Below are positions 32,426-63,940 of a stretch of DNA of 64,000 nucleotides, one piece after another (position 1 is the stretch's first letter; every line of letters begins with the position of its first letter). The notes under the pieces were generated by a model that worked only from the letters and a program-made list of their open reading frames with translations, was not told where the DNA came from and made no database searches. Location: NCBI GenBank assembly GCA_021813555.1, contig JAKAKG010000203.1, forward strand, positions 3,507 through 67,506. The letters run 5' to 3'. Origin of the DNA: Acidobacteriota bacterium (GTDB lineage: Bacteria; Acidobacteriota; UBA4820; DSQY01). The position numbers and the translations under genes are program-made.

Positions 32426-32532
32426 GGCGCCTAGTGTACGGCCGCGGCGCCCTCCAGGGAAGAGCCCGCAAGCCCCTCCCGTTTGCCAACGGCATCCCGT
32501 TCAGCTAGATTGAGAAGGGAGGCATCGGATTA

Positions 32533-36067: not shown

Positions 36068-36072
36068 CTGTC

Positions 36073-38532: not shown

Positions 38533-38665
38533 CCTCCTCCAGAATCAGTTAAGTATAGCCGTGTGGGCTGGAAAACGCAAGACTGAGAAGGGTTTACGGG
38601 GTCGGGTACACGAGAAAGGGGAGCCCGATGGCTCCCCTCTCCCGTCCAGGCTTGCGTACGGATCG

Positions 38666-42461: not shown

Positions 42462-42538
42462 TCCTCGCTCCTTTTTCTTTTCCCTTTTCCCTTTTCACTT
42501 CTCACTTTTCACTTTTTACTTCTTACTTTTCACTCCTC
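42462..42538. repeat. Heptamer array (~11 units GTGARAA / GGGAAAA / GAGTGAG on minus strand) between oppC stop and holA start
   Basis: The reverse complement reads ggaggagtgaaaagtaagaagtaaaaagtgaaaagtgagaagtgaaaagggaaaagggaaaagaaaaaggagcgaggag. The oppC TGA stop and the holA GTG start both lie within repeat units. Confidence 0.9.
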
Positions 42539-43615: not shown

Positions 43616-43617
43616 CC

Positions 43618-44667: not shown

Positions 44668-44796
44668 GGGCAGACCCGGAGCGAGCGAAACGCGAAGAGA
44701 GATACTCGGCGAGCCGGAGGGCGATGGGCGGCCTTCATCTCCGCTGTCATCGCGGGTTCACTGGCTCCCTGCTTCGTTGAACCATGAGCTCCTTCA

Positions 44797-46530
44797 CTAC
44801 CGCAAGCCCTTCGGCACCCACCACTCCTTGACGGACGGATACCAGGTAAACAGCCCATACCCCGCCCGGCTCACCCGGACGTTCTGAAACTTGCTCCTCA
44901 CGGCCACTATCTGGCTCCCCATGAAGAGGTAGGTGTGAGGCTGATCTTGGGCCACCAGTTCGTGGATGCGCCAGAAGGCCCGCTGGCGAGCCGCCCGGTC
45001 GAAGGTTCGCTGCTCCGTCTCGATGAGCCGGTCTACCTCGGGACTCATGTAGGACACGTCGTTCTGTCCCGTCCCCATGCCATCGGGAAGGAGCTTGGCC
45101 TGAGAAGAGTGGAGGAGGCCATAAGGGTCTGGATCGTCTCCCAGGCTCCAACCCGAGAGGTAGGCCTGAAACTGGTGCCTTTGGGTCCTATCCAGGAAAA
45201 CGCTCCACTCCACTTTGCGGATGGCCATGGCGACGCCTATCCGCCTCAAGTCTTGCTGGAAAATCTCGAGGAAGCGGGAGAACTGGTCCACCTCCGCAGG
45301 CACCAGGCACTCGAAAGCCAGAGGCTTGCCGTCCTTTTCCCGGACCCCGTCCCCCTTCCGGTCCTTCCACCCAGCCGCATCCAGAAGCGCGGCGGCTCTG
45401 GCCGGATCGTAGGGGTAAGGCTTGATGGCGGGGTTGCTCTCCCAGCTTCCGGGATAAAACGGGCCGGAGCACGTGATGCCATGTCCGTCCAAAACCTTAT
45501 CCACGATGCCCTGGCGGTTTGTGGCATAGGTCATGGCCTGCCGGACCCGCCTGTCCCTGAAAAAGGGGTTGGAGCCATCCATGTTCCAGGCCAAGTACAT
45601 AAACTGACGCCCGTAGTACTCGAACACCGTGGCTCCCTTGAGAAGCGCTTGATCCGCCTTGAGCTGGCGCCACTGTTCGGTGGAGATGGCCGTGAGATCA
45701 AGCTGGCCCGTTTGGTAGGCCGCGAGCTGGGTCTGGCTCTGGGGAATGATTTTGAACACCATCGTATCCAGGTGTGGCCGCCCTCCGAAATAGCGGGGAT
45801 TTGCCTTCAAGACGATGCGCTCCCCGCGCTTCCACTCCGCGAAACGGAAGGGCCCCGTGCCCACTGGGGGCACGTCCGCGGACCCCTTATTGAAGTCCTG
45901 GCTCCGGCCCTTGGCGTAGGCGTATACGTGCCGTGGCATGATGTGAAGGTTCCAGGCCATGAGCCCCGGCGCGTAAGGCTCCTTCCAGGTCACCTTCACC
46001 GTGAAGTCATTCATCCTTTCGACCTTGGCCACGGCTTCGAAGCTCGGCCGCTTGTTGATGGCGTCTACGGCGGGATCCATGCACGCCTCATAGGTAAAGA
46101 GCACGTCATCGGCCGTGAAAGGCTTGCCATCATGCCATGTCACGCCCTTGCGCAGGTGGAAGGTGGTGGTTGTGTTGTCGGGGGAGTTTTCCCAGGATTC
46201 CGCCAGGACGCCCACGGGGTTCATGTCCTGGTCCACGTCCACGAGCGGGTCGTAGATCCACTTGTAGACCAAGTAGGACACCATGTCGTTGGCGATCACC
46301 GGATTGAGGGTGACGGCGTCGGCGGGGAGCGCGCGGGTGAACGTGCCGCCGTCTTCCGGGGCCTCGGCCTCCAATCCGGGGAGAAACGCCATGGTGCGCT
46401 CGGCTGGAGACGGGGTGCCTGCCCAGAACGGCGCCGCAAGCCCGCCGGCCAGCGTCAGAACCAGGGCCGCGGCCCACGGCCCTCCCGACGCCTCCCGCTC
46501 CTTCCTGCTCTCTGAAGGTCCCAAGCCCAC
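44797..46530 (-). CDS. ABC transporter substrate-binding protein, family 5 (oligopeptide/dipeptide/nickel type)
   Basis: The track ORF 44797..47421 is trimmed. The likely start is the GTG at 46530, giving a signal peptide ([26 protein letters not shown]) and an SBP_bac_5-like body. The start is uncertain. Confidence 0.8.
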
Positions 46531-46725
46531 CCCCCCACGTTTGCTTTCAAGTTTAGGCCCGTCGTGCCCCCCCCGGCAAGGGCGCGAGCGAGGCCCACAC
46601 GGCGCCGGTGTCACGCCCCTTTCATTGACAGGTGCCGTTCCCTGTGCCATACTTTTGTTCTTTTTAGAGGCACCGCGGCATCCGATCCGCCACCACGTAA
46701 GCGTCCACGTCGTCAGGGGGTCAAA

Positions 46726-47904
46726 GTGAAAGTTCACGAATACCAGGCCAAGGAAATCCTGCAACGGTACCAGGTGGCCGTCCCCAAGGGCAAGGTCGCC
46801 TTCTCCGCCGAGCAGGCGTACGCCATCGCCAAGGAACTGGGCGGCACCGTCGTGGTGAAAGCACAGATCCACGCTGGCGGGCGGGGCAAGGGCACCTTCA
46901 CGGACGGCTTCAAGGGCGGCGTGAAGCTGGCCAAGACCGCCGACGAGGCGGCCGAGTACGCGAAGAAAATGCTCGGCAACACCCTCGTCACGCATCAGAC
47001 GGGATCCGCGGGCAAGCAGGTCCAGAAAATCTACGTGACCGGCGCCAGCTCCATCGCCAAGGAGTATTACCTCGGCATCGTGCTGGACCGGTCCAAGCAG
47101 ATGAACGTGATCATGTCCTCCACCGAGGGGGGCGTCGAGATCGAGAAGGTGGCCGCCGAGGCCCCCGAGAAGATTCTCAAAACCTGGATCGATCCGCTCC
47201 TGGGCATCCAGCCCTTCCACGCCCGCGAAATCGCCTTTGGCCTCGGCTTCACGGGCGAAGCCTTCAAGGAGTGCGTGAAGCTCGTTACGGCGCTGTACAA
47301 AGCCCACGAAGAGACGGACTCGACTCTTACTGAAATCAATCCTCTCATCCTCACGGAAGACGGCCACGTGCTGGCCCTCGACGCGAAGATGAACTTCGAC
47401 GACAACGCCCTCTACCGCCACCAGGACATCATGGAGATGCGGGACTTCACGGAGGAGGACCCGCTGGAAGTGGAGGCGAGCAAGTTCGACCTGAACTACA
47501 TCAAGCTCGACGGCTCCATCGGGTGCATGGTGAACGGCGCGGGCTTGGCCATGGCCACCATGGACGTCATCAAGCTCGAGGGGGGCGAACCGGCCAACTT
47601 CTTGGACGTGGGGGGCGGCGCCACCACGGAGCGCGTGAAGAACGCCTTCCGTATCCTCCTCTCCGACAAGAACGTGAAGGCCGTCCTCATCAACATTTTC
47701 GGCGGCATCGTCCGCTGCGACGTGATCGCCGAGGGCGTCATCGCCGCGGCCAAGGAGATCGGAGTCAATCTGCCCGTGGTGGTGCGCCTCCAGGGCACGA
47801 ACGTGGACAAGGGCAAGGCCATGCTCACGGAATCGGGCCTCAAATTCGCCGTGGCCGACAACCTGAAGCAGGCGGCCCAGATGGCCGTCGCATCCGTGAA
47901 GTGA
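46726..47904 (+). CDS. sucC: Succinyl-CoA synthetase beta subunit
   Basis: GTG start giving [12 protein letters not shown]... with ATP-grasp and ligase-CoA domains. Confidence 0.9.
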
Positions 47905-47913
47905 GGGGGGGCC

Positions 47914-48789
<876 letters not shown>

Positions 48790-52545: not shown

Positions 52546-53442
52546 ATGGACCGGCCCGTCGCCCCGGGGCACTTCTCCGGCCCGCTCAACCGTCACGGCG
52601 ACGGCGCGTTCACCGTCAGCGTGGGCGGTATCGCCGTTCAGTTCTCTGGGCTTTCCGAGGCGCTGCTCCCGGCGGCCCAGGAGCGGTATTCTCCCTTCCT
52701 CTCCGATGAACCGCCTCTGCACACGGTCGTCCTTTATGACGGGCCGGAGCACTACCTCGACATGGCCGAGGACGGCTTCATGCGCGTGGAGGAGCGCGAC
52801 TTCCCTGAAGGACGGATCATGGTGTCCCATGATTTCGCCGCCTTCTGGCCCGCGGGAGCCTCCGCGGGAACGCTCCGGGTGAGCGTCGCCTTCCCGCTCT
52901 CGAAGGTTCTGTCCGCCATGGAAAACTACCTGCGCTGGTGCGTGGCCGATCTGGCCATCGAGCGCGGCGGGTTCGTCCTGCACAGTGCGGGCCTGGTGCT
53001 GGAGGGGAAGGCCTACGTCTTCTTCGGGCATTCGGGCGCGGGCAAGAGCACGGCCACGACCCTCTCGCTGGAGGGGCGGGGCGCCCTTGCCCTCTCCGAC
53101 GATCTCGTCCTGCTCCTGCGCGAGGGAGACCGCTTCCTGGCGGCCGCCACCCCCTTTCAGGGAAGTATGGCCCAGCGCGTCAAGGAGAAGGGGCTCTGCC
53201 CCCTGGCAGGCCTCTTTCACCTCCGCCAATCGGCCGAAGTCGGGACTCTTCCCCTTGCCCGGGCCGCCGCCGTGGGTATGCTCCTCTCCTGCTGTCCCTT
53301 CGTCGCCGATCCCGGCCGGAGATCGGAGTATCTCCTCCCCATCGTGGAGGATCTGTGCCGGGCCGTTCCCGTGCGGGAGCTGCTTTTCAGGAAGGATCCG
53401 TCCTTCTGGGACGTTGTGCTCAAAAGGGAGGATCAGCCGTGA
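52546..53442 (+). CDS. HPr-kinase-related P-loop protein (HprK C-terminal-like fold; RiPP-associated kinase candidate)
   Basis: The ATG at 52546 lies 14 nt after the ndk stop. It has a Walker A (GHSGAGKST) followed by a SDDLV motif, as in the HprK C-domain and lasso-peptide kinases. It lacks the HprK N-domain and the genomic context is not that of hprK. Confidence 0.7.
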   Translation: MDRPVAPGHFSGPLNRHGDGAFTVSVGGIAVQFSGLSEALLPAAQERYSPFLSDEPPLHTVVLYDGPEHYLDMAEDGFMRVEERDFPEGRIMVSHDFAAFWPAGASAGTLRVSVAFPLSKVLSAMENYLRWCVADLAIERGGFVLHSAGLVLEGKAYVFFGHSGAGKSTATTLSLEGRGALALSDDLVLLLREGDRFLAAATPFQGSMAQRVKEKGLCPLAGLFHLRQSAEVGTLPLARAAAVGMLLSCCPFVADPGRRSEYLLPIVEDLCRAVPVRELLFRKDPSFWDVVLKREDQP

Positions 53443-53711
53443 GCGAAGAGACTCTGCCGAAAAGAAACCCCGACGTATCCTGGAGGACCATCGAGGGCCA
53501 AGCCGTCCTCATTCATAACCGCCTGGGCGAGATCCAGGTCTTGAATGACCTGGGAACTTACATATGGGAACACCTGGAGCTCGGGCCCGAGATCTTGGCC
53601 AGGAATATAGCGCAGGAGCACGAAGTTTCAGTGCCAGACGCCCAGCGCGACGTTGAAGAATTCATGCAGGCGCTGCGTGGCTCAGGAGCTCTGGCCGATG
53701 GAACAGACTGA
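53439..53711 (+). CDS. PqqD-family protein (RiPP precursor recognition element-like)
   Basis: The GTG start overlaps the upstream stop (GTGA) and is preceded by GGGAGG. The 90-aa product is SWRTIEGQAVLIHNRLGEIQVLNDLGTYIWEHLE...DVEEFMQAL, typical of PqqD. Confidence 0.75.
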   Translation: MSEETLPKRNPDVSWRTIEGQAVLIHNRLGEIQVLNDLGTYIWEHLELGPEILARNIAQEHEVSVPDAQRDVEEFMQALRGSGALADGTD

Positions 53712-54765
53712 GCGAGGAACACCCCTGCAGCGGTTGCACGACAGCGCCTTCCGGGCGCGGCATCCCCTGTTTGCGTCGATTGAGCTCACGTACACCTGCA
53801 ACCTGGCCTGCTACTTCTGCTACAACCCCGTCCAGCGCAAGAGCCAGAAGCGGACGCAGCCGGCCCCGGAGAGAGCCGAGTCTCCTTTGACCTTCGAGGA
53901 GATCGTGGGCGTCCTGGACCAATTGAAAGAGATGGGCGTCCTCTACCTCACCCTCACGGGCGGCGAGCCGCTCATGCATCCCCGGTTCTGGGATATCGCT
54001 CAGGCTGCCAAGGACCGGGCCTTTGCCGTTCGTATATTCACCAACGGCGCGGCCCTCACTCAAAACGTGGTGGACCGGCTCGCGACTCTCATGCCCTTTT
54101 GCCTGGAGATGTCCATCCACGGAGCCAAGGCCGAGACCGCCGAGGCCCTCACGCAGGTGAAAGGGTCCTTCCAGCGCCAGATGAACGCGCTCTCCCTTCT
54201 TCAAGGATCGGGCCTCCGGGTCTTTCTCAAGTGCACCGTGACGCGCCTGGTAGAGAACGAACTGGCCGACATCAAGGCGATGGCCGACGGTTTCGGGTTC
54301 CCCCTTTTCTTCGACCCCGTCCTCACGATCTCGGACGACCGGCAGTTTTATCCCATGGAGCTGCGGGCCTCGGACGAGGCCATCGCCTGGCTCTACAAAA
54401 CCTCGGGCTTGAATCTGGGCAACTCGCCCTTCGAGCGGGAGCCCGGCGATTTTAATTGCAGCGTGGGCACGGGAACCCTCCACATCACCCCCTTTGGAGA
54501 GATTCACCCTTGCGTCCAGTGGAAGCAGTCCGTGGGCAGCGTGCGGGAAAAGACCCTTCAGGAGATTTGGGCCACCTCGCCCCTCCTGATGGCGGCCAGG
54601 GAGGCTAACCTGAAGAGCGCGGCCATGCTCAAGGACACCGTGAAGGAGCACGCCTTTTGCGCCCATTGCCCAGGACTGTCTCAGTTGAAATGCGGCGACC
54701 CCCTCCGTCCCGACGAACAGTACGTGAGGGTGGCGAACATCCGATCCAAGCTAGCGGAGACGTAA
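53698..54765 (+). CDS. Radical SAM enzyme with C-terminal SPASM domain (peptide-modifying maturase candidate)
   Basis: The ATG at 53698 overlaps the pqqD-like gene by 14 nt. It has a CNLACYFC radical-SAM cluster motif and C-terminal Cys-rich SPASM-like segments (FNCSVGTG...HPCVQW...CAHCPGLSQLKCGDP). Confidence 0.85.
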   Translation: MEQTERGTPLQRLHDSAFRARHPLFASIELTYTCNLACYFCYNPVQRKSQKRTQPAPERAESPLTFEEIVGVLDQLKEMGVLYLTLTGGEPLMHPRFWDIAQAAKDRAFAVRIFTNGAALTQNVVDRLATLMPFCLEMSIHGAKAETAEALTQVKGSFQRQMNALSLLQGSGLRVFLKCTVTRLVENELADIKAMADGFGFPLFFDPVLTISDDRQFYPMELRASDEAIAWLYKTSGLNLGNSPFEREPGDFNCSVGTGTLHITPFGEIHPCVQWKQSVGSVREKTLQEIWATSPLLMAAREANLKSAAMLKDTVKEHAFCAHCPGLSQLKCGDPLRPDEQYVRVANIRSKLAET

Positions 54766-54889
54766 CCGGTTCAGCGGTTTCTTGTCTTGCCTCAGCGCCG
54801 CGGGCGCTTGGGACCAACGGGAACGATTGGGACTTGACAGGCGGCACGAGATGTCGCAATTTACCTTCGGGAGAAGGAGAGGTGGCAGA

Positions 54890-55018
54890 ATGAAAAAGCC
54901 CTACGAGAAACCCGCGGTGATTTACAAGGAGCGGATTGAGGCCAGAGCTTCGAGTTGCGGGGTAAGCCCGAGCAAGGCTGGAACGGGCACCGGTTGCTCT
55001 GCCCCCTTCGTGAGCTAG
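54890..55018 (+). CDS. 42-aa candidate RiPP precursor peptide MKKPYEKPAVIYKERIEARASSCGVSPSKAGTGTGCSAPFVS
   Basis: A small ORF with a strong SD (GGAGAAGGAGAGG) 7 nt upstream of the ATG. It lies between the rSAM/SPASM gene and the C25 peptidase gene. It is embedded in the track's 78-aa ORF 54782..55018. The product has a charged leader and a Ser/Gly/Thr-rich core with two Cys and a C-terminal Ser. Confidence 0.6.
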   Translation: MKKPYEKPAVIYKERIEARASSCGVSPSKAGTGTGCSAPFVS

Positions 55019-55044
55019 CCGGTTCGGGGCTATCTCTTTTGCAG

Positions 55045-58000
55045 GTGGCACGGATCCAGGGTTTCAACCGCCGCCAGGCATTTTGGCACATCCTCCTTGG
55101 GTTGGCGGCTTTTGTCATAAGTGTTCACCCTCCTGCCGCCTCCTCCGGGGGGCGTCAGGTCTTCCATTTCAGCTGGTCCCCCGCCCCGGGCCAGGCGGCC
55201 TTATGGGCCGAACCTTCCCCTGAGGGGCTCCCGCCGCGAACGCCCTCGGTTTCCATTAAAGTCGCCCTGCCGGCCAACGCCCAGAAAGCATCCCTTCGCG
55301 TGGTGACCGCCCACTGGCAGGCGGTCCCCCCTGGCCATTGGGTCCCCGCCACGGGCGAGGCCGCCGTTCTCGGCCGGCGCGGGGTGTGGCACGGTATCCC
55401 CTACCAGGAAATCATCGTGCATCCCGTCCGGCGAGGTCCCTCCGGGGAAGTGGAGATCTTGTCCACCCTCGTAGGGACCCTTGAGGTGCCCGGCTTGGCC
55501 GGCTCCCTTGATCCTCCCCTGCCGCCCGGGATCCGCGCGCGAACGGACGCCAGCCTCTTCCTCAACCCCACGGGCGCCCTTGCCTTCCGGCACGCCTCCG
55601 AGACGGGCCGAAGCATTTCCAGAACCACCGTCTCCACCTTTCCGCCCGGCGCCAGCCCCGTGCGAGTGGAGGTCGCGCAGGACGGCATTTACCGGTTGGA
55701 TTACACCTATCTCACCTCCCACGGGTTAAGCCCCGAAACCCTGGTGGAGACCATCCACCTGGAATGCGGGGGGGTGGAACTTCCCATCTGGATCGAGGGC
55801 CCATCCTCGGGGCCTCTTTCTCCGTCCAGCGCCGTGGTGTTCTACGGCCAGAAGCTCGCCATCACGAACCGGCCCATGTTCGATGGCGGCGACTTCTCGG
55901 ATACCAACGTGTACTGGCTGTACTCCAACGGCCAGCGGGGGCTTCGGATGGCCACCGCCCCCGCGGCGCCCACGGGCCGCTTCCCTTCCGTGGCACAGTT
56001 TGCGGCCACGGTCCACTTGGAGGTGAACACCTACCTGGACTCACTGGACCACTTCAGGCCTGACGGGGACAACTGGTTCTGGGCCCCCATCCTGGCCGCC
56101 CCCGCTGGGTCGAGCACCTCCAGGGATTTCAGCGTGAACCTGCCCCACCCCTCCGGAGCGGGCCTCTCGGCCACTGCTGTCCTGGCGGGCCTCAACGACG
56201 GCCAACACGGCATCACCCTGGCGCTCAACGGTGCCTCGCCCAGCGCGGGACCCGATCCCGGTCCCTGGCAGGGCAAAGCCATCTCGGCCCAGACGTGCAG
56301 CTTCAGCTCGGGCTTGGCCAACGGAGCCAACACCGTCACTCTGACGTTGCCGGGGGTCGCCGGACAGCCCGATTTCCAGCTTCTGGACTACTTCGATTTC
56401 ACCTATTCGAGGACCTTGGATTCGGACTCGGGCACTCTCCTCATCACGGATGTTGAGGCTTCCGCTCAGTACGCATGCCCGGGGCACCAGACGGCACCAT
56501 ACATTCTCGATCTCTCCGCCTCGGACCCGGCGACGGGGCTCAAGCGCCCCATCCTGCTCACGGGAGCCACGTTCTCCGCGGGCACGGCTACCTTCGAAAT
56601 GCCTGCAAATCCTGGCGTGACGCGGCGCCTCGTGGCCCTATCCAGCGCGCCGCTCCTGCCAAGCGCCGCTTATGTGGCGGCTGCACCCGCGATTCCGGAC
56701 CCCGCCAACCCCGCGGACATGGTCATCATCACCCATCCCGACTTTCATCCCGCGGGAGCCGATGCCGTGTGGCAAGCCTACCTGGCGAGGCGGTCGGAGG
56801 CCATGACGGTAGTAGCGGTGGATGTGGAAAGCATCTACAACGCCTATTCCTACGGCCTCATGGACCCAACAGCGATTCGGAGCTACCTGGCCGCCGCCGC
56901 GGCAGCATGGGGCCGGGCTCCCAAGTACGTCCTCCTCGTGGGGGACGCATCCTATGACTACAAAAACTACACGGGGACGCCTGGCAACACCAGCCGCGTC
57001 CCTACCATGATGTTTGAAGACGCGGGGGATTCCACCTACATGGGCCGGTATCCTTCCGATGCCTGGTTCGCCGACGTGAACGGAGACGGCTACCCAGATT
57101 CGGCGGTGGGCCGCCTTCCCGCACGGTCCTATGAAGAGCTGGCGGGCATGCTCACCAAGATCATGGCCTATGAGGATCAGGCCCTGGCCGGCACCTGGTA
57201 CAAGAGCGGCCTCTTCGTGGCCGACACGTGGACCCAAACCTGGGAGCAGGTCTTCGAACAAGCCAACACCCTCCTGCAAACCACCTACATGGCACCGCCC
57301 TGGAGCGGCACCCACCTGTTTTTTCACGACGCTCCTTATAACGGCACCGACGCCAACGCCTTCGCCTCCGCCTTGAGGGCGGCATGGCCGGGCGCCGCGC
57401 TCATGCACTACAGCGGACACAGCGGCATAAGCAGCCTCGGCAACCAGTATGCTTTCTTCACCTCGTACCCCTCCCGGAATTGCACCAGCGGTACGTGCAG
57501 CGATTCGGACGTAGATCTGCTCCCCCCAGTGGACCTGACTCCCTCGGCCCCCTCAGCCCCTCTGCCCTTCATCGTGAGCAGCAGTTGCTACAACTCAGCT
57601 TTCGACGAGGTGAGCACCGACGCCCTCATGGAAGTTCTGTTAGCCAGGGCGGACCGGGGTACCATCGGGTCCTGCGGATTCTCCACTATCGCCTACCCCG
57701 ACGAGGAGCACACCTTCGCCAACGCATTCTTCGAGCAGGCCTTCGGCCCGTCCAAAACTAGACCGGTGGGGCCGCTGGTGGATGCGGGGCGCTTCTCTCT
57801 GCCCTCCTCCGATGCCCGGTCGGTCATGGGGAACATCCTCATGGGCGATCCTTCCGTCTCCCTGCGCCTGCCCGCCCCCGATCCTCCGCCGGCCTTCGCC
57901 GCTTCGCCCGCGGACGGAGCCGTGGTTCTGTCCTGGGGCTCTCCGGCGGCTCCCGTCTCGAGATTTGAACTCTACAGGTCCGGCGACGGAGGCAAAACTT

Positions 58001-58689
58001 GGGCGGCGGTGGCGAGTCCAGGGCCCTCGGACCGTGGATATAACGATGGCGGCCTGGTGAACGGCGCGGAGTACACATACTACGCCACGAGTCTGGACAC
58101 GGGCGGCTTCGAAGGCCCGCCGAGCCTTGCGGCCACCGCCGTGCCCGAACCCGGCATCTGCACCGTGCTGTGCCAGGCGCAGGCGCCCACCTCGGGCTCT
58201 CCAGGGACATCCGTGCCCTTCCAGGCTTCGGCCACCAGCACGAGCTGTGCTCAAAGTTTGGCCTATGACTGGGATTTCGGAGACGGCAGCCTTCGCGCGA
58301 GCATCCCGGCCCCCACCCATGTCTATGCCTCGGCTGGCGCCTATACCTGGACGTTCACCGCTTCGGCGGATTCGGCCTCCTGCATGAAAAGCGGGACTAT
58401 CGTGGTGGCCGTCCCCCCCCACGTCACGCGCGTGCAGAAGGCCGCGAGCCCCTTCCGCATCATCATCACGGGGACGAACCTGCATGCCGACGCGAGCGTC
58501 TATGTTGGCGGCCAGCGGTGGGCCACGGTCAAAATCGTCCCGGAAACCAAGGTCGTCCTCAAGGGCACCGGCCTCAAGGCGCTCTTCCCCGCGGGGGTCT
58601 TCGTGCCCGTGCGCCTGGTGAACGGCGACGGCGGCGAGACGACGGTGAGCTACAACCGCACAGGCAACCAGTGGCGCCAGGGCCCGTAA
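55045..58689 (+). CDS. Secreted peptidase C25 (gingipain-like cysteine protease) domain protein with C-terminal Ig/PKD-like beta domains
   Basis: A GTG start at 55045 gives the signal peptide RRQAFWHILLGLAAFVISVHPPAASS. C25-like features are YVLLVGDASYD, HYSGHSG (putative catalytic His) and SSSCYNSAFD (putative catalytic Cys). It is ~1214 aa. Confidence 0.7.
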   Translation: MARIQGFNRRQAFWHILLGLAAFVISVHPPAASSGGRQVFHFSWSPAPGQAALWAEPSPEGLPPRTPSVSIKVALPANAQKASLRVVTAHWQAVPPGHWVPATGEAAVLGRRGVWHGIPYQEIIVHPVRRGPSGEVEILSTLVGTLEVPGLAGSLDPPLPPGIRARTDASLFLNPTGALAFRHASETGRSISRTTVSTFPPGASPVRVEVAQDGIYRLDYTYLTSHGLSPETLVETIHLECGGVELPIWIEGPSSGPLSPSSAVVFYGQKLAITNRPMFDGGDFSDTNVYWLYSNGQRGLRMATAPAAPTGRFPSVAQFAATVHLEVNTYLDSLDHFRPDGDNWFWAPILAAPAGSSTSRDFSVNLPHPSGAGLSATAVLAGLNDGQHGITLALNGASPSAGPDPGPWQGKAISAQTCSFSSGLANGANTVTLTLPGVAGQPDFQLLDYFDFTYSRTLDSDSGTLLITDVEASAQYACPGHQTAPYILDLSASDPATGLKRPILLTGATFSAGTATFEMPANPGVTRRLVALSSAPLLPSAAYVAAAPAIPDPANPADMVIITHPDFHPAGADAVWQAYLARRSEAMTVVAVDVESIYNAYSYGLMDPTAIRSYLAAAAAAWGRAPKYVLLVGDASYDYKNYTGTPGNTSRVPTMMFEDAGDSTYMGRYPSDAWFADVNGDGYPDSAVGRLPARSYEELAGMLTKIMAYEDQALAGTWYKSGLFVADTWTQTWEQVFEQANTLLQTTYMAPPWSGTHLFFHDAPYNGTDANAFASALRAAWPGAALMHYSGHSGISSLGNQYAFFTSYPSRNCTSGTCSDSDVDLLPPVDLTPSAPSAPLPFIVSSSCYNSAFDEVSTDALMEVLLARADRGTIGSCGFSTIAYPDEEHTFANAFFEQAFGPSKTRPVGPLVDAGRFSLPSSDARSVMGNILMGDPSVSLRLPAPDPPPAFAASPADGAVVLSWGSPAAPVSRFELYRSGDGGKTWAAVASPGPSDRGYNDGGLVNGAEYTYYATSLDTGGFEGPPSLAATAVPEPGICTVLCQAQAPTSGSPGTSVPFQASATSTSCAQSLAYDWDFGDGSLRASIPAPTHVYASAGAYTWTFTASADSASCMKSGTIVVAVPPHVTRVQKAASPFRIIITGTNLHADASVYVGGQRWATVKIVPETKVVLKGTGLKALFPAGVFVPVRLVNGDGGETTVSYNRTGNQWRQGP

Positions 58690-58769: not shown

Positions 58770-59312
58770 GTGCGGGTGCAGGACCTTGTCGCGGTTGAAC
58801 AGTGGCTTCGGGAGGCGAAGGACGGCGACGAGGAGGCCTTTGCCCGCCTGGTGAAGGCTTACTATGGGCCCCTCTTCCGCCTCGTGTACCAGATGGTGCC
58901 TCGCGCCCACGATGCGGAGGACATCCTCCAAGAGACGTTCTTCAGATTCTTTCAGGCTCTCCGGCGGCTTGTCCCCGGCCAGGACCCCTTCCCTTTCTTG
59001 AAAAGCATCGCGGTGCGGCGCACCTACAGCTTCTTGAAGCGCAATGACCGCATCCATGTTTCGCTGGACCACCTTCCCGAAGACACTCCCCAACTTTCCG
59101 TCCAAGGACACCCGTACGAGATCCGGACCCTCTACCTCTGGGCGGCGAAACTGCCCCCGGCCCAGCGTCTCGTGTTCCTCCTGCGCGACGTTCTCGGAGT
59201 AGAGGACGGTGAAATCGCCCGCCTCACGGGCCTCCGGGAGGTGACCGTGCGGCGCCATGCCTCCCTGGCCCGGCAGACGCTGGAACGCGAATTCGGCTCC
59301 GAGTCCCTCTGA
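58770..59312 (+). CDS. ECF-type RNA polymerase sigma factor
   Basis: GTG start after GAAGGGGAGAG. It has sigma-70 region 2 (DAEDILQETFFRFF) and region 4. Confidence 0.75.
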   Translation: MRVQDLVAVEQWLREAKDGDEEAFARLVKAYYGPLFRLVYQMVPRAHDAEDILQETFFRFFQALRRLVPGQDPFPFLKSIAVRRTYSFLKRNDRIHVSLDHLPEDTPQLSVQGHPYEIRTLYLWAAKLPPAQRLVFLLRDVLGVEDGEIARLTGLREVTVRRHASLARQTLEREFGSESL

Positions 59313-59409
59313 GGGGCGTCCGCCTCCCCGGAGCCGGCTGCGCCTCCCACGGCCGACCTTCGAGCTCGGCTGGTTCTCCGCGTTGCGGAGGCCCCCCGGG
59401 TCCCTTATA

Positions 59410-60078
59410 ATGGGCTTTAGATGGGAGCAGAACGTGGACTTGGCGAAGATCCGAAAAAAAGCTCGGGGCGGCGCGCCGGGAGGAACGAGGGCCGCGGGAC
59501 CGCCGCCGGAGGCGGAACCATCGGCACCGGCGGCCCAGGCGGCGGACCCGGATGTTCTGCCAGGGCCTGCGGCCGACTCCGAATCGCCGGCCTTCGCCCT
59601 CCCGACGGCCCAGCCCGCAAAGGAGGACACGGCAGCTCCCGCCGAGCCCGCGGCCGCAGGAGAGCGCCTCCTCATCTTTGATCTGGACGGCGAGAAATAC
59701 GCCATCCCCATCCACGACATCGCCCAGATCATCGACATGCCCCCCGCCACGTTCGTCCCCAACGCACCGCCCTTTCTGTCCGGCATCTTCTCCCTCCGGG
59801 GGCGGATCGTCTCCATCATCAACGTGGCGTCCAGACTGGGCCTGATCTCCTCCAAACCGGAGGCACCCAAGGTGATCGTGCTGGATTTGGGCGCAGACCA
59901 CATCGGACTTCTCGTGGACCAGATCGACCAGGTGGTGGAGGTGAACGTGGCCGCGCTGGAACCGGTGCCCGAGGGATTCAAGCCCGTGGTCCAGGACTTC
60001 GTGGAGGGTGTCTTTCACCACAAGGGGCGAGCCGTTGGCTTCCTCAATCTGCCCATGTTCCTTGCATTCGACGTCTGA
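59410..60078 (+). CDS. cheW: CheW-domain protein with low-complexity N-terminal region
   Basis: The ATG at 59410 starts a C-terminal CheW-like domain (LLIFDLDGEKYAIPIHDIAQII...IFSLRGRIVSIINV). Confidence 0.8.
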   Translation: MGFRWEQNVDLAKIRKKARGGAPGGTRAAGPPPEAEPSAPAAQAADPDVLPGPAADSESPAFALPTAQPAKEDTAAPAEPAAAGERLLIFDLDGEKYAIPIHDIAQIIDMPPATFVPNAPPFLSGIFSLRGRIVSIINVASRLGLISSKPEAPKVIVLDLGADHIGLLVDQIDQVVEVNVAALEPVPEGFKPVVQDFVEGVFHHKGRAVGFLNLPMFLAFDV

Positions 60079-60095
60079 CCCGGGGAGCCGCCGCC

Positions 60096-60866
60096 ATGTT
60101 CGTCCAGTGTCCGAATTGCCTCAAGCGATACCGCCTCAACGAGAGTCAGGCCAGGCTCCTCAGAATCCGGTGCCGAAGCTGCAGCACCGAGTTCCTCGTG
60201 TCGCCCTCCGTGGAGCCGAGCCATGAGCTGGCGGGAGCCCACGGGCGTGCCACGGCCGTCGTGGCCGACATCCAGCGGGACTTCCGCAACAGCTTGGTGG
60301 AGCTGCTCCACCGCCTGGGCCTCAACCTGGTGGTCACGGAAGACGGCCTCACGGCGCTCGCGGAGGTCCGGTCCAGGAGGCCCCGTCTCCTGCTGGTGAA
60401 TCCGTACCTTCCCGGGCTCATGGGGACGGATCTCATCGCCCGGCTCAGGGCCGAAGAGGCGGCGCCTCCAACCATCATCCTTTTGGGAGCCATCCACAAT
60501 CGGAAGCGATACAGACGGCGGCCCCAGTCCCTTTACGGAGCCGACGACTACCTGGACGAGGGGGGTTCGGACGAAGCGGTCCTGCGCAAAATCGAGTTCC
60601 ATCTGCAGCTCGCGCCATCCGCATCGGCCCCAGAGGGCTCCGACGAGGAAGCCACGAGACTGGCGAGAAGCGTCTTCGCCGATCTGCTGGTGTACGATCC
60701 GCGGCGTATGGCCCAGGTAAAAACACCTGAAGACTTCTTTCGGCTCTTCCGGGACGAGGTGGCTGAGGGACGGCGTTACATCGAGACCCGAAAACAGGGC
60801 GCCGGTGACCACCTGCGGGACGTGGTCGCGCGCTACCTTCAGATCGCTGAAGAGGGGGAAGCATGA
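60096..60866 (+). CDS. Zinc-ribbon (MJ0042-type) plus receiver-like domain protein
   Basis: An N-terminal CPNC...CRSC zinc ribbon is followed by a CheY-like fold with a degenerate acidic pocket. Confidence 0.6.
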   Translation: MFVQCPNCLKRYRLNESQARLLRIRCRSCSTEFLVSPSVEPSHELAGAHGRATAVVADIQRDFRNSLVELLHRLGLNLVVTEDGLTALAEVRSRRPRLLLVNPYLPGLMGTDLIARLRAEEAAPPTIILLGAIHNRKRYRRRPQSLYGADDYLDEGGSDEAVLRKIEFHLQLAPSASAPEGSDEEATRLARSVFADLLVYDPRRMAQVKTPEDFFRLFRDEVAEGRRYIETRKQGAGDHLRDVVARYLQIAEEGEA

Positions 60867-63073
60867 ACACGGAGTTCGCCCGAGAGATCGCCTCTCCGGA
60901 CGTGGAGACGCGCCGAAGGGCCGCCATCGCCCTGGCGGACGAGACGGCGGCGACGGCCCTCCCGTGGCTGGACACCCTCCTGGGTGACCCCAACTGGCGG
61001 GTCCGGAAGGCAGCCGTGGAGACGGTCTTGGCCCTTCCCACCGAAGCCGTCATGCCGACGCTGATCCAGGCGCTCTATGACCCCGAAAACGCAGGCAAGC
61101 GCAATTCGGCCTATGAATCTCTCGTCAAGGCGGGCCCTTCGGTTCTTCCCCACGTCTACGACCACCTGGTGGAGGAAGACACGGACGTAAAACTCGCCCT
61201 CATCTCCTTGCTGGGCGAGGTGCCGAGCCGAAATTCCGCCCCTCACCTCATCTACTATCTGAGCCACGACAACATCAACGTCGTCTCCGCGGCCATCACC
61301 AGCCTCGGGCGCCTGAAAGACGCGGGCAACCTGCCCGTTCTCGTCGACCTTTTCCAGCGCCAGGACGATTGGGTCTGGTTCCATCTCATCGAAGCCCTCA
61401 GCGGCATCGGAGGTCCCGCCGCCACGTCCAAGCTCATCGAACTGTACGAGCATCCCAAGTACCGCAGGGCCGTCCTCAAGTCCTTCGGGAGGATGGGCGA
61501 TCTTCATACCGTATCCTTCCTCCTCCAGCGGGCCGCCGACCCCGGTTCGCCCCTCCTCGCCGTGATGGAGGCCCTGGGACAGATCTACAACGCCAACATC
61601 CCCGAAGCCCTGTTGCCGCGCCATCACCGGGAAGTGGCGCGTCAGATCCAGCTTCACTTCCCCATGGAGGTCCTGTCCCGCCTCGAAACGGCTTGGGGAG
61701 AAGCTAAAGTGACCGAGCGCCGCGGCATGATTCTGGTGGCCGGGGCCCTGGCGGACCTGTCGCTGCTCGACAAGGTCCTCGCCGAGCTGGCGAGCCCCTA
61801 CCTCCAGCGAGACGCCTTCAACGCGGCTCTGGCCTTCGGCCGGGCGGCAGCACGCACCCTCATCGCGCGCCTCAACGCTTCGCCGGCCCAGGACCAGCGC
61901 CTCCTCCTCATCCGCCTCCTCGCCGCCGCCGGCGGCCCCGATGCCGTGGTCCCCCTTCTGAACCAGTCGTACGAAGACGACGTCCAGATCCGGATGGAAG
62001 CCATCGCCGCGCTGGGGGAGGTGGACGATCCCCGCTGCCTCCAGAAACTCGTGGGCGTCCTGCGAGAGCCCGACATGACGTTCCACGACGTGGCCCTGCG
62101 GGCCGCGCGCAACCTCGCCCGGAAGCATCCCGAGCACCGGGCCCGGCTTGCCATCTCGGGGGAGACCATGGTCTCCGACGATGAAGAATCGGTGCGCTGC
62201 GCGGCCTACGCCCTTCTGGCGGAGGGCCGAAACGGCGACGCGGCCCTGCTCGTCCCCGGACTCCAGGACCCGTCACCCGTGGTCCGGCAGGCCGTGGTGC
62301 GGATCATCGCCCAGGGAGGGGGCGCCCACACCTTCCAGGACCTTTTGCCCATGCTGGGAGACACGGCTGCCCGGGTTCGCCGGGCCGTCATTTCGGCCCT
62401 GGGGCGCGAGCTGCTGGCGCGCCAACCGGAAATCCTCATCACGTCGCTCTCGGACCCCGACGTCTGGGTCCGGGCGGAAACGGCCTTCTTCCTTTCCCAG
62501 AGCACCGATCCGTCCATCAGCCGGTCCCTGCTCAAAGCCCTCGAGGAGGACGAGCTGCCCGTCCGGCTCGGCGCCCTCCGGGGCCTCGCCGAAGTGGGCT
62601 GCGGAAGCCTCTTCAAGGCGGTCCTCGCCCTTGCCACCCAAGCCTCCAGCCCGCTTGAGGTCCGCCAGGCGGCCCTGGGGGCTCTGGCCAAATCGGGGCG
62701 CCCCGATGCCGTGAAGGCCCTCACGGACGCCGTGCAGGAACACCGGTGGGAGATCCGTTCCACCGCCATCGAGCTCATGGGAGCCTCCCAGGACCGGCGG
62801 TTTATCCCGATCCTCCTGAAAGAGCTCGAACGGGACCAGGACACCCTCGTGCGCCAGACCGTCATCCACGCGCTCATCGCCCTCAAGGCCATCGAGGCCG
62901 TACCGCGCATGCTCAACTACCTGACGGACCCGGCCCTGAAGGACGCCACCTTTGCCTTTTTCACATCTCTGGGCAGGGAACACGCCCGCCTCATCGAGAA
63001 CGAGGCTCAGTCGGTGGATTTCCAGACCAAGCTCATCCTCATCGAGATCCTCAAGCACCTGGAGAATCTCTAA
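60863..63073 (+). CDS. HEAT/PBS-lyase repeat protein (chemosensory cluster-associated)
   Basis: 736 aa of repeated ~30-aa HEAT-like units (...VRxAAxxALG...). Its start overlaps the upstream stop (ATGA). Confidence 0.75.
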   Translation: MNTEFAREIASPDVETRRRAAIALADETAATALPWLDTLLGDPNWRVRKAAVETVLALPTEAVMPTLIQALYDPENAGKRNSAYESLVKAGPSVLPHVYDHLVEEDTDVKLALISLLGEVPSRNSAPHLIYYLSHDNINVVSAAITSLGRLKDAGNLPVLVDLFQRQDDWVWFHLIEALSGIGGPAATSKLIELYEHPKYRRAVLKSFGRMGDLHTVSFLLQRAADPGSPLLAVMEALGQIYNANIPEALLPRHHREVARQIQLHFPMEVLSRLETAWGEAKVTERRGMILVAGALADLSLLDKVLAELASPYLQRDAFNAALAFGRAAARTLIARLNASPAQDQRLLLIRLLAAAGGPDAVVPLLNQSYEDDVQIRMEAIAALGEVDDPRCLQKLVGVLREPDMTFHDVALRAARNLARKHPEHRARLAISGETMVSDDEESVRCAAYALLAEGRNGDAALLVPGLQDPSPVVRQAVVRIIAQGGGAHTFQDLLPMLGDTAARVRRAVISALGRELLARQPEILITSLSDPDVWVRAETAFFLSQSTDPSISRSLLKALEEDELPVRLGALRGLAEVGCGSLFKAVLALATQASSPLEVRQAALGALAKSGRPDAVKALTDAVQEHRWEIRSTAIELMGASQDRRFIPILLKELERDQDTLVRQTVIHALIALKAIEAVPRMLNYLTDPALKDATFAFFTSLGREHARLIENEAQSVDFQTKLILIEILKHLENL

Positions 63074-63082
63074 AGTCCGGCC

Positions 63083-63940
63083 ATGTTGAACCCCAACGAT
63101 GGGCCTCAGATGCCCCTGCTGGATGACGATCTCTACCGGCGTTTCTGCGTCCTTATTCATGACGAGACGGGCCTCTCCTTCGGGCCCGGCTCCCAGTTTT
63201 TCCTGGAGCGTAGGCTCGAGTCGCGCATGTCGGCCCTCGGAGGCGTGAGCCCCAGGGACTATTTGAACTACATCCGCTACGACCCGGACAGGACCCAGGA
63301 ATGGGACCACCTCGTGACGGTCATCACCACCAACGAGACGTACTTCATGAGGGAGATCAAGCAGCTTCGGTGCTTCCAGAATGATATCCTCCCCGCCCTA
63401 TGGGAACGGAGCGGGCGAAGCAGGATACGGGTCTGGAGCGCGGGCTGTTCCAGCGGAGAGGAACCTTACAGCATCGCCATCCTGGCCAAGGAAACGGGCC
63501 GTTATCCCGAGGGAGCCCTGGAGATCTACGCCACGGACATCAACTCGCGAGTCCTGGCGAAGGCCAAGGCGGGCCTCTACACGGAGAGCTCCTTCCGGGC
63601 CGTGGACGAAGCGTTCAAAGCACGCTGGTTCACGGAGGAAGAACCTGGGCGCTTCCGCGTCGCCCCCTCCATCCAAAAATGCGTGAACTTTTCGAGATTC
63701 AACCTCTTCGACCCAGGCAGGTACGGCCTGCTGCCGGCGTTCGATGTCATTTTCTGCCGCAATGTGATCATATACTTTGACATGGAAGCCAAAGTCAAAG
63801 TTATGGAAAGGTTCCACGAGAAGCTCAAGGCCCAGGGTTACCTGTTGCTGGGCCACTCCGAAAGCCTCATCTCCGTCACGGACACCTTCAAACTCATCCA
63901 CCTTCCGGGCGACCTCGTTTACGTCAAGGAGGGGCCATGA
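63083..63940 (+). CDS. cheR: Chemotaxis protein methyltransferase CheR (second paralog)
   Basis: Motifs ETYFMRE and IRVWSAGCSSGEEPYSIAIL, with a SAM-binding fold. Confidence 0.9.
   Translation: MLNPNDGPQMPLLDDDLYRRFCVLIHDETGLSFGPGSQFFLERRLESRMSALGGVSPRDYLNYIRYDPDRTQEWDHLVTVITTNETYFMREIKQLRCFQNDILPALWERSGRSRIRVWSAGCSSGEEPYSIAILAKETGRYPEGALEIYATDINSRVLAKAKAGLYTESSFRAVDEAFKARWFTEEEPGRFRVAPSIQKCVNFSRFNLFDPGRYGLLPAFDVIFCRNVIIYFDMEAKVKVMERFHEKLKAQGYLLLGHSESLISVTDTFKLIHLPGDLVYVKEGP

Follow-up and report, generated by a model that had tools for sequence, protein, structure and literature searches.

Dedicated leader peptidases of RiPPs include LanP (S8), the C39 domains of PCAT, the B2 cysteine proteases of lasso systems, and QhpE. 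SynChlorMet-type systems (TIGR04249-04251, TIGR04352-04355, TIGR04302-04304) bring together an HprK-like P-loop protein, a PqqD protein, and radical SAM (rSAM)/SPASM enzymes. In neither SynChlorMet nor the related HprK/PqqD/rSAM systems, to our knowledge, has a C25 peptidase or an ECF sigma factor been described. The lasso set also holds a PqqD-like protein and an HprK-like kinase (PMC8498205). Within family C25, PorU is a C-terminal signal peptidase and a sortase-type transpeptidase, which keeps a 108-residue CTD (PMC11285876).

The locus described here is in a window of 64,000 nt, the whole stretch of DNA that was analysed, from an Acidobacteriota bacterium. It contains a module of six genes, encoding a ScmC-like protein, a PqqD protein, an rSAM/SPASM enzyme, a two-Cys precursor peptide, a C25 peptidase, and an ECF sigma factor (Table 1).

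Table 1. Features of the six-gene module and of its C25 peptidase, with positions in the window
Feature	Position	Strand	Evidence
ScmC-family HprK-like P-loop protein, first module gene	52546..53442	+	weak NCBIfam matches, HprK_rel_A 1.4e-7, ScmC 1.8e-6
PqqD-family small protein, about 90 aa, presumed leader-recognition element	53439..53711	+	translation; NCBIfam, Pfam of orthologues
Radical SAM/SPASM enzyme	53653..54765	+	Radical_SAM 1.5e-21, SPASM 1.4e-8
Sigma-70-like promoter (TTGACA, 17 nt, CAATTT)	54834..54862	+	-35 conserved in position in homologous loci
Precursor peptide, 42 aa, MKKPYEKPAVIYKERIEARASSCGVSPSKAGTGTGCSAPFVS	54890..55018	+	conserved leader, two-Cys core, C-terminal Ser
Weak hairpin and U-rich tract over precursor stop, possible attenuator	55016..55032	+	hairpin scan
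PorU-like C25 cysteine peptidase, 1214 aa	55045..58689	+	Pfam, NCBIfam, profile search, structural model, Foldseek
Signal-peptide-like N-terminus, residues 1-33	55045..55143	+	read from sequence
N-terminal beta-rich domains, residues 34-558, common to PorU	55144..56718	+	NCBIfam, model, Foldseek
Peptidase_C25 catalytic domain, residues 559-940	56719..57864	+	Pfam E 6e-63
Codon of catalytic His792	57418..57420	+	invariant G-H; aligns with PorU YAGHGG motif
Codon of catalytic Cys848	57586..57588	+	invariant; aligns with ...TATC... cysteine of PorU
FN3-like domain, residues about 951-1033	57895..58143	+	profile matches FN3 structures; strands in model
PKD domain, residues 1045-1122	58177..58410	+	PKD_4 1.8e-14; also matches ColH PKD domains
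C-terminal Ig-like beta-sandwich	58420..58686	+	strands in structural model
ECF-type sigma factor, 180 aa, last module gene	58770..59312	+	Sigma70_r2, Sigma70_r4_2

The C25 peptidase

The ORF coordinates agree with the earlier note that the C25 gene begins 26 nt after the precursor, this being the distance from the TAG stop at 55016-55018 to the in-frame GTG at 55045. It is not certain that this GTG is the start codon. Near-identical proteins (>=90%) from the same cluster have been called in public records at lengths of 1129, 1163, 1194, and 1216 aa, one of them on the contig that carries a 100%-identical ScmC. The long form is supported by a conserved N-terminal motif, W.P...Q..W...P..PP.P.VSLK.ALP, and by the signal peptide, since both are also found in homologues at 40-61% identity. 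With three Arg, a hydrophobic core of 14 residues, and a following A-A-S, residues 1-33 read as the signal peptide that had been proposed; every C25 homologue appears to start in the same signal-peptide-like way. The product is predicted to be a Sec-exported, catalytically competent clan-CD cysteine peptidase.

Peptidase_C25 (PF01364) is matched with a score of 213.8 bits against a cut-off of 23 and with profile positions 1-374 of 374 covered. The 20 close family members all match as well, as members of family C25 (MEROPS clan CD). The catalytic His (HYSGHSG) and Cys (SSSCYNSAF) suggested from the first reading of the DNA are His792 and Cys848. Alignments of all full-length family members and of distant C25 proteins have G791-H792 and C848 as invariant positions, aligned with the PorU motifs; the dyad, the loss of which from an alignment had been named beforehand as evidence against such an enzyme, is therefore intact. 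A Cys pair between these two motifs, RNCxxGTC, is also conserved in the catalytic domain. Residues 34-558 are mostly beta strands in the structural model, and the NCBIfam PorU model aligns to residues 206-799. The PKD/Ig-like beta-sandwich domains expected at the C-terminus are present as an FN3-like, a PKD, and an Ig-like domain, with Pfam fn3 matched by 8 of 20 family members. No match to the T9SS CTD or Por_Secre_tail family was found in the C25 protein (NCBIfam E<=0.01, Pfam E<=0.1).

The protein had been described as gingipain-like. By NCBIfam, by profile, and by whole-length fold it is instead PorU-like, with PorU the nearest relative in profile searches (1.9e-18) and against the NCBIfam model (2.5e-51). 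The score for the PorU equivalog, NF033707, is 174.4 bits, under its cut-off of 420, and for PorU2 it is 132 bits, where 450 would be needed. For the AlphaFold model (pLDDT 83, pTM 0.74), the best Foldseek match is latent PorU (PDB 6ZA2) with an E of 2e-32 over the whole length, about 1200 aligned columns. The TM is just 0.36-0.38 and the rmsd is high, as is expected when flexible domains are arranged differently; the model shows the multi-domain fold of PorU over its whole length. The match to Kgp (4RBM) is limited to the catalytic and Ig-like part of the model (E 1e-16), and the family profile matches Kgp at 3e-3. Neither the window protein nor any of its 20 close relatives matches Propeptide_C25, and the window protein does not have the gingipain architecture; the prodomain is present in a distant module member, L043. 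The statement that C25 is rare outside Bacteroidota does not hold, as C25 proteins occur in records from Anaerolineaceae, Polyangiales, Calditrichaeota, and Phycisphaerales.

The other genes of the module

The start of the ScmC-like gene is placed, presumptively, at MDRPV; its ORF is open from 52249, overlapping ndk. The matches of its product to ScmC, HprK_rel_A, and HprK_rel_B are weak, with the HprK-like NCBIfam scores far under their cut-offs (27-31 bits against 125-200). Homologues carry a precomputed annotation of PF27840 (ScmC), and GxSGAGKS/T and SDD are invariant in the alignment. The PqqD protein has the lasso PqqD chaperone as its best NCBIfam match (1.8e-8, under the cut-off), and PF05402 is carried by its orthologues. 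The rSAM enzyme, the true start of which is probably near 53695, matches no NCBIfam family at its cut-off.

The sigma factor scores 63.3 bits with the ECF sigma superfamily model, TIGR02937, which is over the cut-off. Its gene is directly after that of the C25 peptidase in most loci extending past C25, including the distant loci L043, L056, L062, and L091, and in the last of these the two genes overlap by 4 nt. There is no sigma gene after C25 in L063, L080, or L097, and no anti-sigma gene was recognisable beside the C25 and sigma genes.

Related precursor peptides adjoining cassettes number 31, with further members in loci fetched later. No Pfam or NCBIfam family is matched by the precursor. 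The family has a conserved leader of the pattern K-x-Y-E-K-P-x-V/I...E-x-I-E-A-R-A (or E-x-I-E-A-x-A at its end), a two-Cys core, a conserved small-residue junction, and a near-invariant C-terminal Ser. Together with the PqqD and Radical_SAM/SPASM genes, this 31-member family gives the locus the composition of a general rSAM-dependent RiPP cluster. No signal sequence was seen in the precursor sequence. One subgroup (L043, L044, L050, L061, L035), in which the rSAM gene abuts C25, has no detectable precursor.

A conserved upstream promoter and a hairpin after the stop codon are common for RiPP precursor genes. The promoter in the window was not flagged by a consensus scan and has a weak -10 (CAATTT); several homologous loci have a good one, TATATT or TATAAT. 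Hairpins with U-tracts are no commoner in this region than expected by chance, but a much stronger one is found at the same place in L003, L022, L027, L056, L062, and L091. These terminator-like hairpins suggest that C25 is transcribed together with the sigma factor and apart from the precursor.

Linkage of the peptidase to the cassette

Linkage was counted in the fetched loci with a ScmC/PqqD/rSAM cassette and at least 1.4 kb beyond the rSAM gene, of which there are 30. A C25-family ORF adjoins the cassette in 29 of these ScmC-seeded loci, at a distance of 0.3-3.8 kb, so the co-occurrence check proposed in the earlier note is strongly positive. Seeding with C25 gives the same picture: close homologues (40-90% identity) with usable upstream DNA are all directly after the ScmC-PqqD-rSAM-precursor genes (L001, L003, L007-L010, L098-L101). 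That note had also reasoned that C25 homologues at unrelated loci would argue against a link. This is largely not what is seen, with the exception of L097, where a close, catalytically intact homologue (47% identity) has gltX on one side, M20/M16 peptidase genes on the other, and neither a cassette nor a sigma factor. The cassette without the peptidase is L075, where there is no C25 in 20.8 kb and an exosortase gene adjoins the rSAM gene. Another cassette, L093, sits in an EPS locus.

The module is found in at least three unrelated kinds of neighbourhood. It is flanked by sucCD/OFOR/ndk in the close group, by uvrB, a GT4 glycosyltransferase, uvrC, and a sulfatase in L043, and by a GT2 glycosyltransferase, a ClpB-like ATPase, and an FG-GAP protein in L091. 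The genes stay adjacent although their order varies: ScmC runs divergently in L056 and L062, L063 has the arrangement PqqD-rSAM-ScmC, and in L076, L080, and L084 C25 and the precursor have been inverted as a pair. The module therefore moves as a unit. Given the 29 linked loci, the unrelated neighbourhoods, and the rearranged orders, the C25 protease is a fixed part of it, and with the dyad intact a functional partnership with the ScmC/PqqD/rSAM trio is well supported.

The hosts so far are Acidobacteriota MAGs, along with unassigned metagenome contigs, and we know of no type IX secretion system (T9SS) in this phylum. No T9SS genes were found near C25 in any locus or among the large window ORFs scanned. 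Nor did the conserved genes of the module or those large ORFs include an exporter.

Function of the peptidase

Because it is almost always inherited with the peptide, the rSAM enzymes, and the sigma factor, the C25 protein is probably the processing enzyme of the peptide, and most likely acts outside the cytoplasm to remove the leader of the modified peptide. Within the cytoplasm, PqqD would bind the conserved precursor leader, the rSAM/SPASM enzyme would cross-link the two-Cys core, probably through thioethers, and ScmC may phosphorylate the C-terminal Ser. The modified peptide would be exported by a route outside the module and then cut by C25, most likely between E-A-x-A and x-x-C at the conserved leader/core junction, which would free the mature product. 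Expression of the pair formed by C25 and the sigma factor's own gene downstream would be controlled by the ECF sigma factor. The residue before the putative cleavage site is R/K in most precursors and I, G, V or M in others. As it varies, the Arg/Lys specificity of the gingipains cannot be general in this family, nor can it be inferred for the window protein. The main gap is one of topology, with an exported enzyme, a peptide that lacks a signal sequence, and a module that lacks an exporter. Further points against this role are the subgroup without a detectable precursor, the unlinked homologue at L097, the C25-free cassette at L075, and the strong hairpins behind the precursor gene in several loci. 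Taken as a whole, this reading of the module is put forward tentatively, as having somewhat less than an even chance of being correct. The literature searched holds no description of a C25 peptidase as a RiPP protease; the role, if true, is one not reported there for the C25 protease family.

It is possible, though unlikely, that the protease and sigma factor are a signalling or output unit and that the peptide is not matured by C25 at all. The modified peptide would then be a signal, an inhibitor or chaperone of the protease in the style of staphostatin and staphopain, or a modulator of the sigma factor. The position of the sigma gene directly 3' of C25, overlapping it in one locus, with no recognisable anti-sigma gene, is consistent with this, as are the terminator-like hairpins between precursor and C25 in several loci. 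The peptide is cytoplasmic by its sequence and the enzyme exported, C25 is kept where no precursor is found, and the close homologue at L097 stands alone. However, where precursor and C25 are in reverse orientation to the rSAM gene they are still neighbours, which fits a direct interaction, although this adjacency does not tell a substrate from an inhibitor. No case in which an rSAM-modified peptide regulates an ECF sigma factor or a C25 protease is known to us.

A more doubtful proposal is a sortase-like reaction, in which the acyl-enzyme formed with the peptide is resolved by an amine and not by water. The modified peptide would become attached to a cell-surface acceptor or closed into a ring. 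Clan CD has other transpeptidases, namely the legumain-type cyclases and the GPI transamidase. The closest relative by profile, NCBIfam model, and whole-length fold, PorU, is itself a signal peptidase and sortase-type transpeptidase (PMC11285876), and both the exosortase, another sorting transpeptidase, in the C25-less L075 and the EPS locus around the L093 cassette point the same way. Against this, an acceptor molecule is without support, the precursor has no C-terminal extension past the conserved Ser to act as a leaving group, and the exosortase was seen at a single locus. The sequence does not separate transpeptidation from hydrolysis.

The linkage could instead be an inherited gene order in one lineage, without functional meaning. 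The close Acidobacteriota group is indeed syntenic from sucCD/OFOR/ndk through to chemotaxis genes. This is already disfavoured and very unlikely, as the six-gene core recurs in unrelated neighbourhoods, with order and orientation shuffled, in loci of 49-75% GC.

The earlier note had offered as a second option that the C25 protein is itself the rSAM/SPASM substrate. It would be modified before export, as sulfatases are by anSME, and the abutting of rSAM and C25 in loci with no detectable peptide gene (L043, L044, L050, L061), as well as the RNCxxGTC Cys pair, would suit such a role. Most loci, however, encode a small peptide whose leader is conserved and all have PqqD, which is the standard RiPP logic, and the precursor HMM found no matching segment in any C25 protein, making this highly improbable.

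That the protein is a PorU orthologue in type IX secretion, incidentally adjacent to the cassette, has PorU as the best match by sequence and fold in its favour but is extremely unlikely, given a score of 174 bits against 420, the lack of the T9SS CTD that PorU keeps (PMC11285876), the absence of adjoining T9SS genes from every locus, the Acidobacteriota hosts identified, and a cassette linkage (29/30) too consistent to be incidental.

Comparison with known systems

PorU, the C-terminal signal peptidase/sortase of the Porphyromonas gingivalis T9SS, and the window protein both have the C25 His and Cys motifs. Both have beta-rich domains before the catalytic domain and Ig-like domains after it, and both are exported, the window protein by prediction. 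They are about 14% identical in the structural alignment. Unlike PorU, the window protein has neither a T9SS CTD nor T9SS neighbours, and its host belongs to the Acidobacteriota. Linked to it are an rSAM peptide cassette and an ECF sigma factor, in place of the PorV, PorQ, and PorZ that go with PorU. The gingipains Kgp and RgpB, the C25 type peptidases, share with the window protein a caspase-like catalytic domain followed by an Ig-like domain, but it has no haemagglutinin/adhesin domains and no CTD.

The trio of HprK-like P-loop protein, PqqD, and rSAM/SPASM enzyme is common to the module and the SynChlorMet-type systems. The module falls outside SynChlorMet by score (27.5 against 125 for ScmC; 63 for ScmE and 75 for ScmF against 400) and has one rSAM gene, where SynChlorMet has two, ScmE and ScmF. 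Its precursor family matches no existing model. Like the dedicated RiPP leader peptidases, the protease gene of the module is kept beside the precursor and its modifying enzymes. It differs from the known leader peptidases in belonging to clan CD, family C25, and in being very large, multi-domain, and, as predicted, exported without a linked transporter.

The C25 gene and its product

The precursor gene, an ORF of 42 codons (MKKPYEKPAVIYKERIEARASSCGVSPSKAGTGTGCSAPFVS) with a TAG stop, is followed by an in-frame ORF for a peptidase of family C25, to which its product belongs by HMM match and by its catalytic dyad. The start of this ORF is uncertain, with public gene calls of same-cluster proteins at least 90% identical to it spanning 1129 to 1216 aa; one of these proteins shares a contig with a 100% identical ScmC. 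The long form, from the GTG at 55045, is the sensible one because it yields a typical signal peptide and a downstream motif conserved in homologues of 40 to 61% identity. These homologues also have a predicted signal peptide at their start, with the same motif after it. As read from the sequence, the predicted signal peptide of the window protein has three Arg, a 14-residue hydrophobic core and then A-A-S.

Features of the window, by module gene, protein domain and surrounding DNA
Feature	Position	Strand	Remarks
HprK-like P-loop protein, ScmC family	about 52546-53442	+	keeps P-loop and SDD motifs
PqqD protein	about 53439-53711	+	90 aa
rSAM/SPASM enzyme	ends 54765	+	
-35 box, sigma-70-like	54834-54862		upstream of precursor
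Precursor	54890-55018	+	
Hairpin and U-tract	55016-55032		weak
C25 protein	55045-58689	+	1214 aa
Peptidase_C25 domain, full-length	residues 559-940		Pfam, E 6e-63
PKD domain	residues 1045-1122		Pfam
FN3-like domain and C-terminal Ig-like domain	rest of C-terminal part of C25 protein		profile, model, Pfam scans of relatives
ECF sigma factor	58770-59312	+	downstream of C25
Chemosensory set	59257-63940	+	CheW, zinc-ribbon/receiver protein, 736-aa HEAT-repeat protein, CheR
Chemosensory set	21212-25377	-	CheA-like kinase and MCP
Opp/Dpp-type peptide ABC importer	42533-47922	-	SBP_bac_5 binding protein and permease
ORF without Pfam match (E<=1e-5)	35983-38583	+	
ORF without Pfam match (E<=1e-5)	2249-3865	-	
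ORF without Pfam match (E<=1e-5)	27212-28768	+	
ORF without Pfam match (E<=1e-5)	31028-32431	+	
ORF without Pfam match (E<=1e-5)	34469-35713	-	

In alignments, G791-H792 and C848 do not vary in the close family (relatives of 40-90% identity) or in distant C25 proteins, and the His and Cys motifs of PorU align with them. The alignment of the Cys to PorU came from the family profile; for this region, searching the PDB by phmmer with just residues 741-960 gave nothing useful. The 26-nt gap between the precursor and C25 genes, the catalytic His and Cys, and the C-terminal PKD and Ig-like domains are therefore as described in the earlier note, and the signal peptide that it had proposed is supported by sequence features and by the predicted starts of the homologues.

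Its description of the protein as gingipain-like is not supported. The best NCBIfam models are the T9SS sortases PorU and PorU2, aligned over residues 206 to 799, which takes in the beta-rich part ahead of the catalytic domain. Against the PDB, the family profile matches PorU (6ZA2) at 1.9e-18 and Kgp at only 3e-3. An AlphaFold model of residues 34-1214 (pLDDT 83.3, pTM 0.74) matches latent PorU across about 1200 aligned columns (E 2e-32), whereas the match to Kgp is limited to the catalytic and Ig-like part (E 1e-16). The C25 protein is thus PorU-like. The Propeptide_C25 prodomain (Pfam) was not found in the window protein or in the scanned members of the close family; the distant protein of metagenomic locus L043 is the only one seen with it. 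Nor are C25 proteins rare outside the Bacteroidota, as had been claimed, since they occur in records of Anaerolineaceae, Polyangiales, Calditrichaeota and Phycisphaerales.

Despite its likeness in fold, the window protein differs from PorU. Its score against the PorU model is 174 bits where the cut-off is 420, and no T9SS C-terminal domain was found in it with Pfam or NCBIfam models, a domain that PorU itself keeps (PMC11285876). There are no T9SS genes near C25 in any locus, and where a host can be named it is an Acidobacteriota MAG. On these four grounds it is not a PorU orthologue.

Genes around the module in the window

The cassette genes (ScmC, PqqD and rSAM/SPASM) and the precursor gene follow sucCD-type genes, genes for three 2-oxoacid:ferredoxin oxidoreductase subunits and ndk. 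The sigma factor gene is followed by the CheW-CheR set, which has this position in the close Acidobacteriota group only. The remaining large ORFs scanned are housekeeping or chemotaxis genes or are without a family match, and no exporter or T9SS genes were found among the large ORFs scanned in the 64-kb window. Some of the five large ORFs without a Pfam match may be shadow ORFs in GC-rich DNA. The peptide importer is about 5 kb upstream of the cassette and is not kept with the module at other loci.

Linkage of C25 to the cassette

In 5.8 billion protein clusters, only 19 close relatives of the C25 protein were found (40-90% identity, at least 783 bits), the matches below them being generic C25 proteins of at most 188 bits. 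All of the close relatives with usable upstream DNA are directly behind ScmC-PqqD-rSAM-precursor and ahead of an ECF sigma factor gene. The linked loci found from C25 are L001, L003, L007, L008, L009/L010, L098, L099 and L100/L101, of which L100 and L101 have a methyltransferase gene inserted ahead of ScmC.

Reverse seeding from the ScmC-like protein gave 80 metagenome loci, which were scored with HMMs. From both seedings, 53 fetched loci carry the rSAM gene of the cassette. A C25-family ORF is present 0.3-3.8 kb past this gene in 29 of them, roughly 20 of which are independent, the rest being near-duplicates. Of the other 24, 21 are uninformative, with less than 0.8 kb of sequence past the rSAM gene. 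Locus L075 lacks C25 despite 12.7 kb of such sequence, and no C25 was found within the about 1.0-1.3 kb available in L093 and L094. The earlier note would have been refuted by C25 homologues at unrelated loci without linkage to the cassette; co-occurrence is instead seen in nearly all of the informative loci but is not without exception, L075 being a cassette without C25 and L097 a C25 without a cassette. The C25 of L097 (563-4600) is a full-length member of the close family with intact catalytic residues and 47% identity; its neighbours on either side are gltX and M20/M16 peptidase genes, with neither cassette nor sigma factor, and it may be a paralogue that left the module. No linkage to the cassette is seen for a generic Polyangiales C25 protein either, and many ScmC paralogues are orphans.

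The association of C25 with the cassette survives new neighbourhoods and gene rearrangement. It is kept in L043, flanked by uvrB, glycosyltransferase, uvrC and sulfatase genes, and in L091, flanked by glycosyltransferase, ClpB-like ATPase and FG-GAP protein genes. In L056 and L062 ScmC is divergent; L063 has the order PqqD-rSAM-ScmC and two C25 copies; and C25 and precursor are inverted as a pair in L076, L080 and L084. The GC content of the module loci ranges from 49 to 75%. A neighbour-joining tree of catalytic domains, with unreliable deep nodes, was used to ask whether the cassette-linked C25s are a single clade; it mixes them with C25s whose context is unknown. The linkage itself is a solid result and would surprise a specialist.

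An ECF sigma gene is 3' of C25 in most loci that extend beyond it. In L091 the sigma gene begins within the last 4 nt of C25 (11539-11542), and in L092, which is near-identical, gene calling merges them into a single fused gene of 1564 aa (7400-12094). No anti-sigma gene was recognisable in any locus. The conserved unit is therefore of six genes: ScmC, PqqD, rSAM, precursor, C25 and sigma. When distant loci were compared by all-against-all BLAST and scanned with Pfam, no further module gene, such as an exporter or anti-sigma gene, came to light, and the flanking genes are housekeeping genes that differ from locus to locus.

Some loci depart from this arrangement. In the subgroup of L043, L044, L050, L061 and L035 the rSAM gene abuts C25 directly, and no precursor was found in the fetched DNA with an HMM, a leader regular expression or a filter for Cys...Cys...Ser ends. 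L043, L046 and L085 have an extra ScmC copy at a distance of about 8 kb, beyond uvrB/uvrC-type genes. It is accompanied by PqqD and rSAM genes in the latter two, which therefore seem to have two divergently placed cassettes. L075 is the one clear case of a cassette lacking C25, and here an exosortase gene (6004-7026, minus strand; EpsH family, 154.6 bits, above cut-off) is divergent from the rSAM gene. The cassette of L093 is inside an exopolysaccharide locus (1-9618) with Wzz, Poly_export and Wzy_C. These two cassettes may be linked to sorting or cell-surface enzymes.

The precursor family and its expression signals

The precursor family, first collected as 31 peptides with more members in loci fetched later, matches no existing Pfam or NCBIfam model. 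The 31 share the leader K-x-Y-E-K-P-x-V/I-x3-E-x-I/L/M-E-A/S/V-x-A and the core pattern C-x(8-18)-C-x(4-7), in which a Lys usually stands between the two Cys, and 29 end in Ser. The residue ahead of the last leader Ala is mostly R or K but is elsewhere I, G, V or M, therefore a gingipain-like basic specificity cannot be general; what stays constant at the junction is that positions -3 and -1 carry small residues. Two precursor genes lie in tandem, with cores that differ, in L009 (7298-7544), L070 (15649-16013) and L100 (6269-6531).

The -35 box, which precedes the precursor ATG by about 50 nt, is conserved in many loci. A GC-rich hairpin with a U-tract, common after RiPP precursor genes, follows the precursor stop and is strong in L003, L022, L027, L056, L062 and L091. 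It suggests that, in part at least, C25 and sigma may have their own transcript. No convincing ECF-type promoter was found ahead of C25 in the intergenic sequences, and a scan of the window for consensus promoters and terminators gave counts no higher than chance.

Possible roles of the C25 enzyme

It is clear that C25 is an exported, multi-domain PorU-like enzyme with an intact catalytic dyad, co-inherited with the rSAM cassette and the sigma factor. The function that we infer for the module is directly testable. In a model of leader cleavage, which has somewhat less than an even chance of being correct, PqqD would present the leader to the rSAM/SPASM enzyme, which would cross-link the two core Cys, and ScmC may phosphorylate the C-terminal Ser. 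The last step is proposed because HPr-kinase homologues in lasso-peptide clusters phosphorylate exactly the C-terminal Ser (PMC8498205). The modified peptide would be exported by an unspecified route and C25 would then cut at the junction E-A-x-A / x-x-C. The main weakness of all models with the peptide as substrate is topology, since there is no exporter gene in the module and the peptide lacks a signal sequence.

A regulatory or inhibitory link between peptide and C25, in which no maturation takes place, is unlikely. Transpeptidation in the style of PorU, for which the fold and the exosortase beside the one clear cassette without C25 give a hint, shares the topological weakness and is rather improbable. 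Hardly any credence is given to C25 as the rSAM substrate, which the earlier note had offered as an alternative, to a true T9SS role, or to meaningless synteny behind the linkage.

Leader cleavage by C25 can be extended to a broader reading, in which a PorU-type clan-CD enzyme was recruited outside the T9SS as the dedicated extracytoplasmic processor of a class of peptides not described before, two-Cys, rSAM-cross-linked and possibly C-terminally phosphorylated; this is conceivable but doubtful. In the boldest version, C25 would work as a transpeptidase of the sortase type, fixing the peptide to the cell surface or making it into a ring, with the ECF sigma completing a peptide-signalling loop.

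Significance and comparison with known systems

The known proteases of RiPP maturation come from few families, for example S8, C39, S9, M16 and the transglutaminase-like lasso B2. We know of no earlier C25 enzyme in this role, and this would be the first, adding a PorU-like family to the RiPP proteases and linking PorU-type sortases to small-peptide biology. The clan of the enzyme is known for transpeptidation, so that it would be useful for peptide ligation and cyclisation. PorU-like proteins outside the Bacteroidota gain a concrete, testable partner, and a compact six-gene module is defined in MAGs of the Acidobacteriota, a phylum with few cultured members. With its precursor family and clear-cut sequence signatures, the module lends itself to genome mining and heterologous expression. 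From the near-invariant C-terminal Ser and the HprK-like protein, a phosphorylated thioether peptide is predicted, which, if true, would be a new combination of modifications.

In the literature searched there was no description of a C25 peptidase linked to an rSAM or RiPP system, and no prior description of ScmC/SynChlorMet. In its make-up the cassette is like the SynChlorMet and HprK-related/PqqD/rSAM systems, but its scores are far below their cut-offs. The module is best rated as an rSAM cluster of the RiPP type in which the sigma factor is fixed and the protease partner is without precedent.
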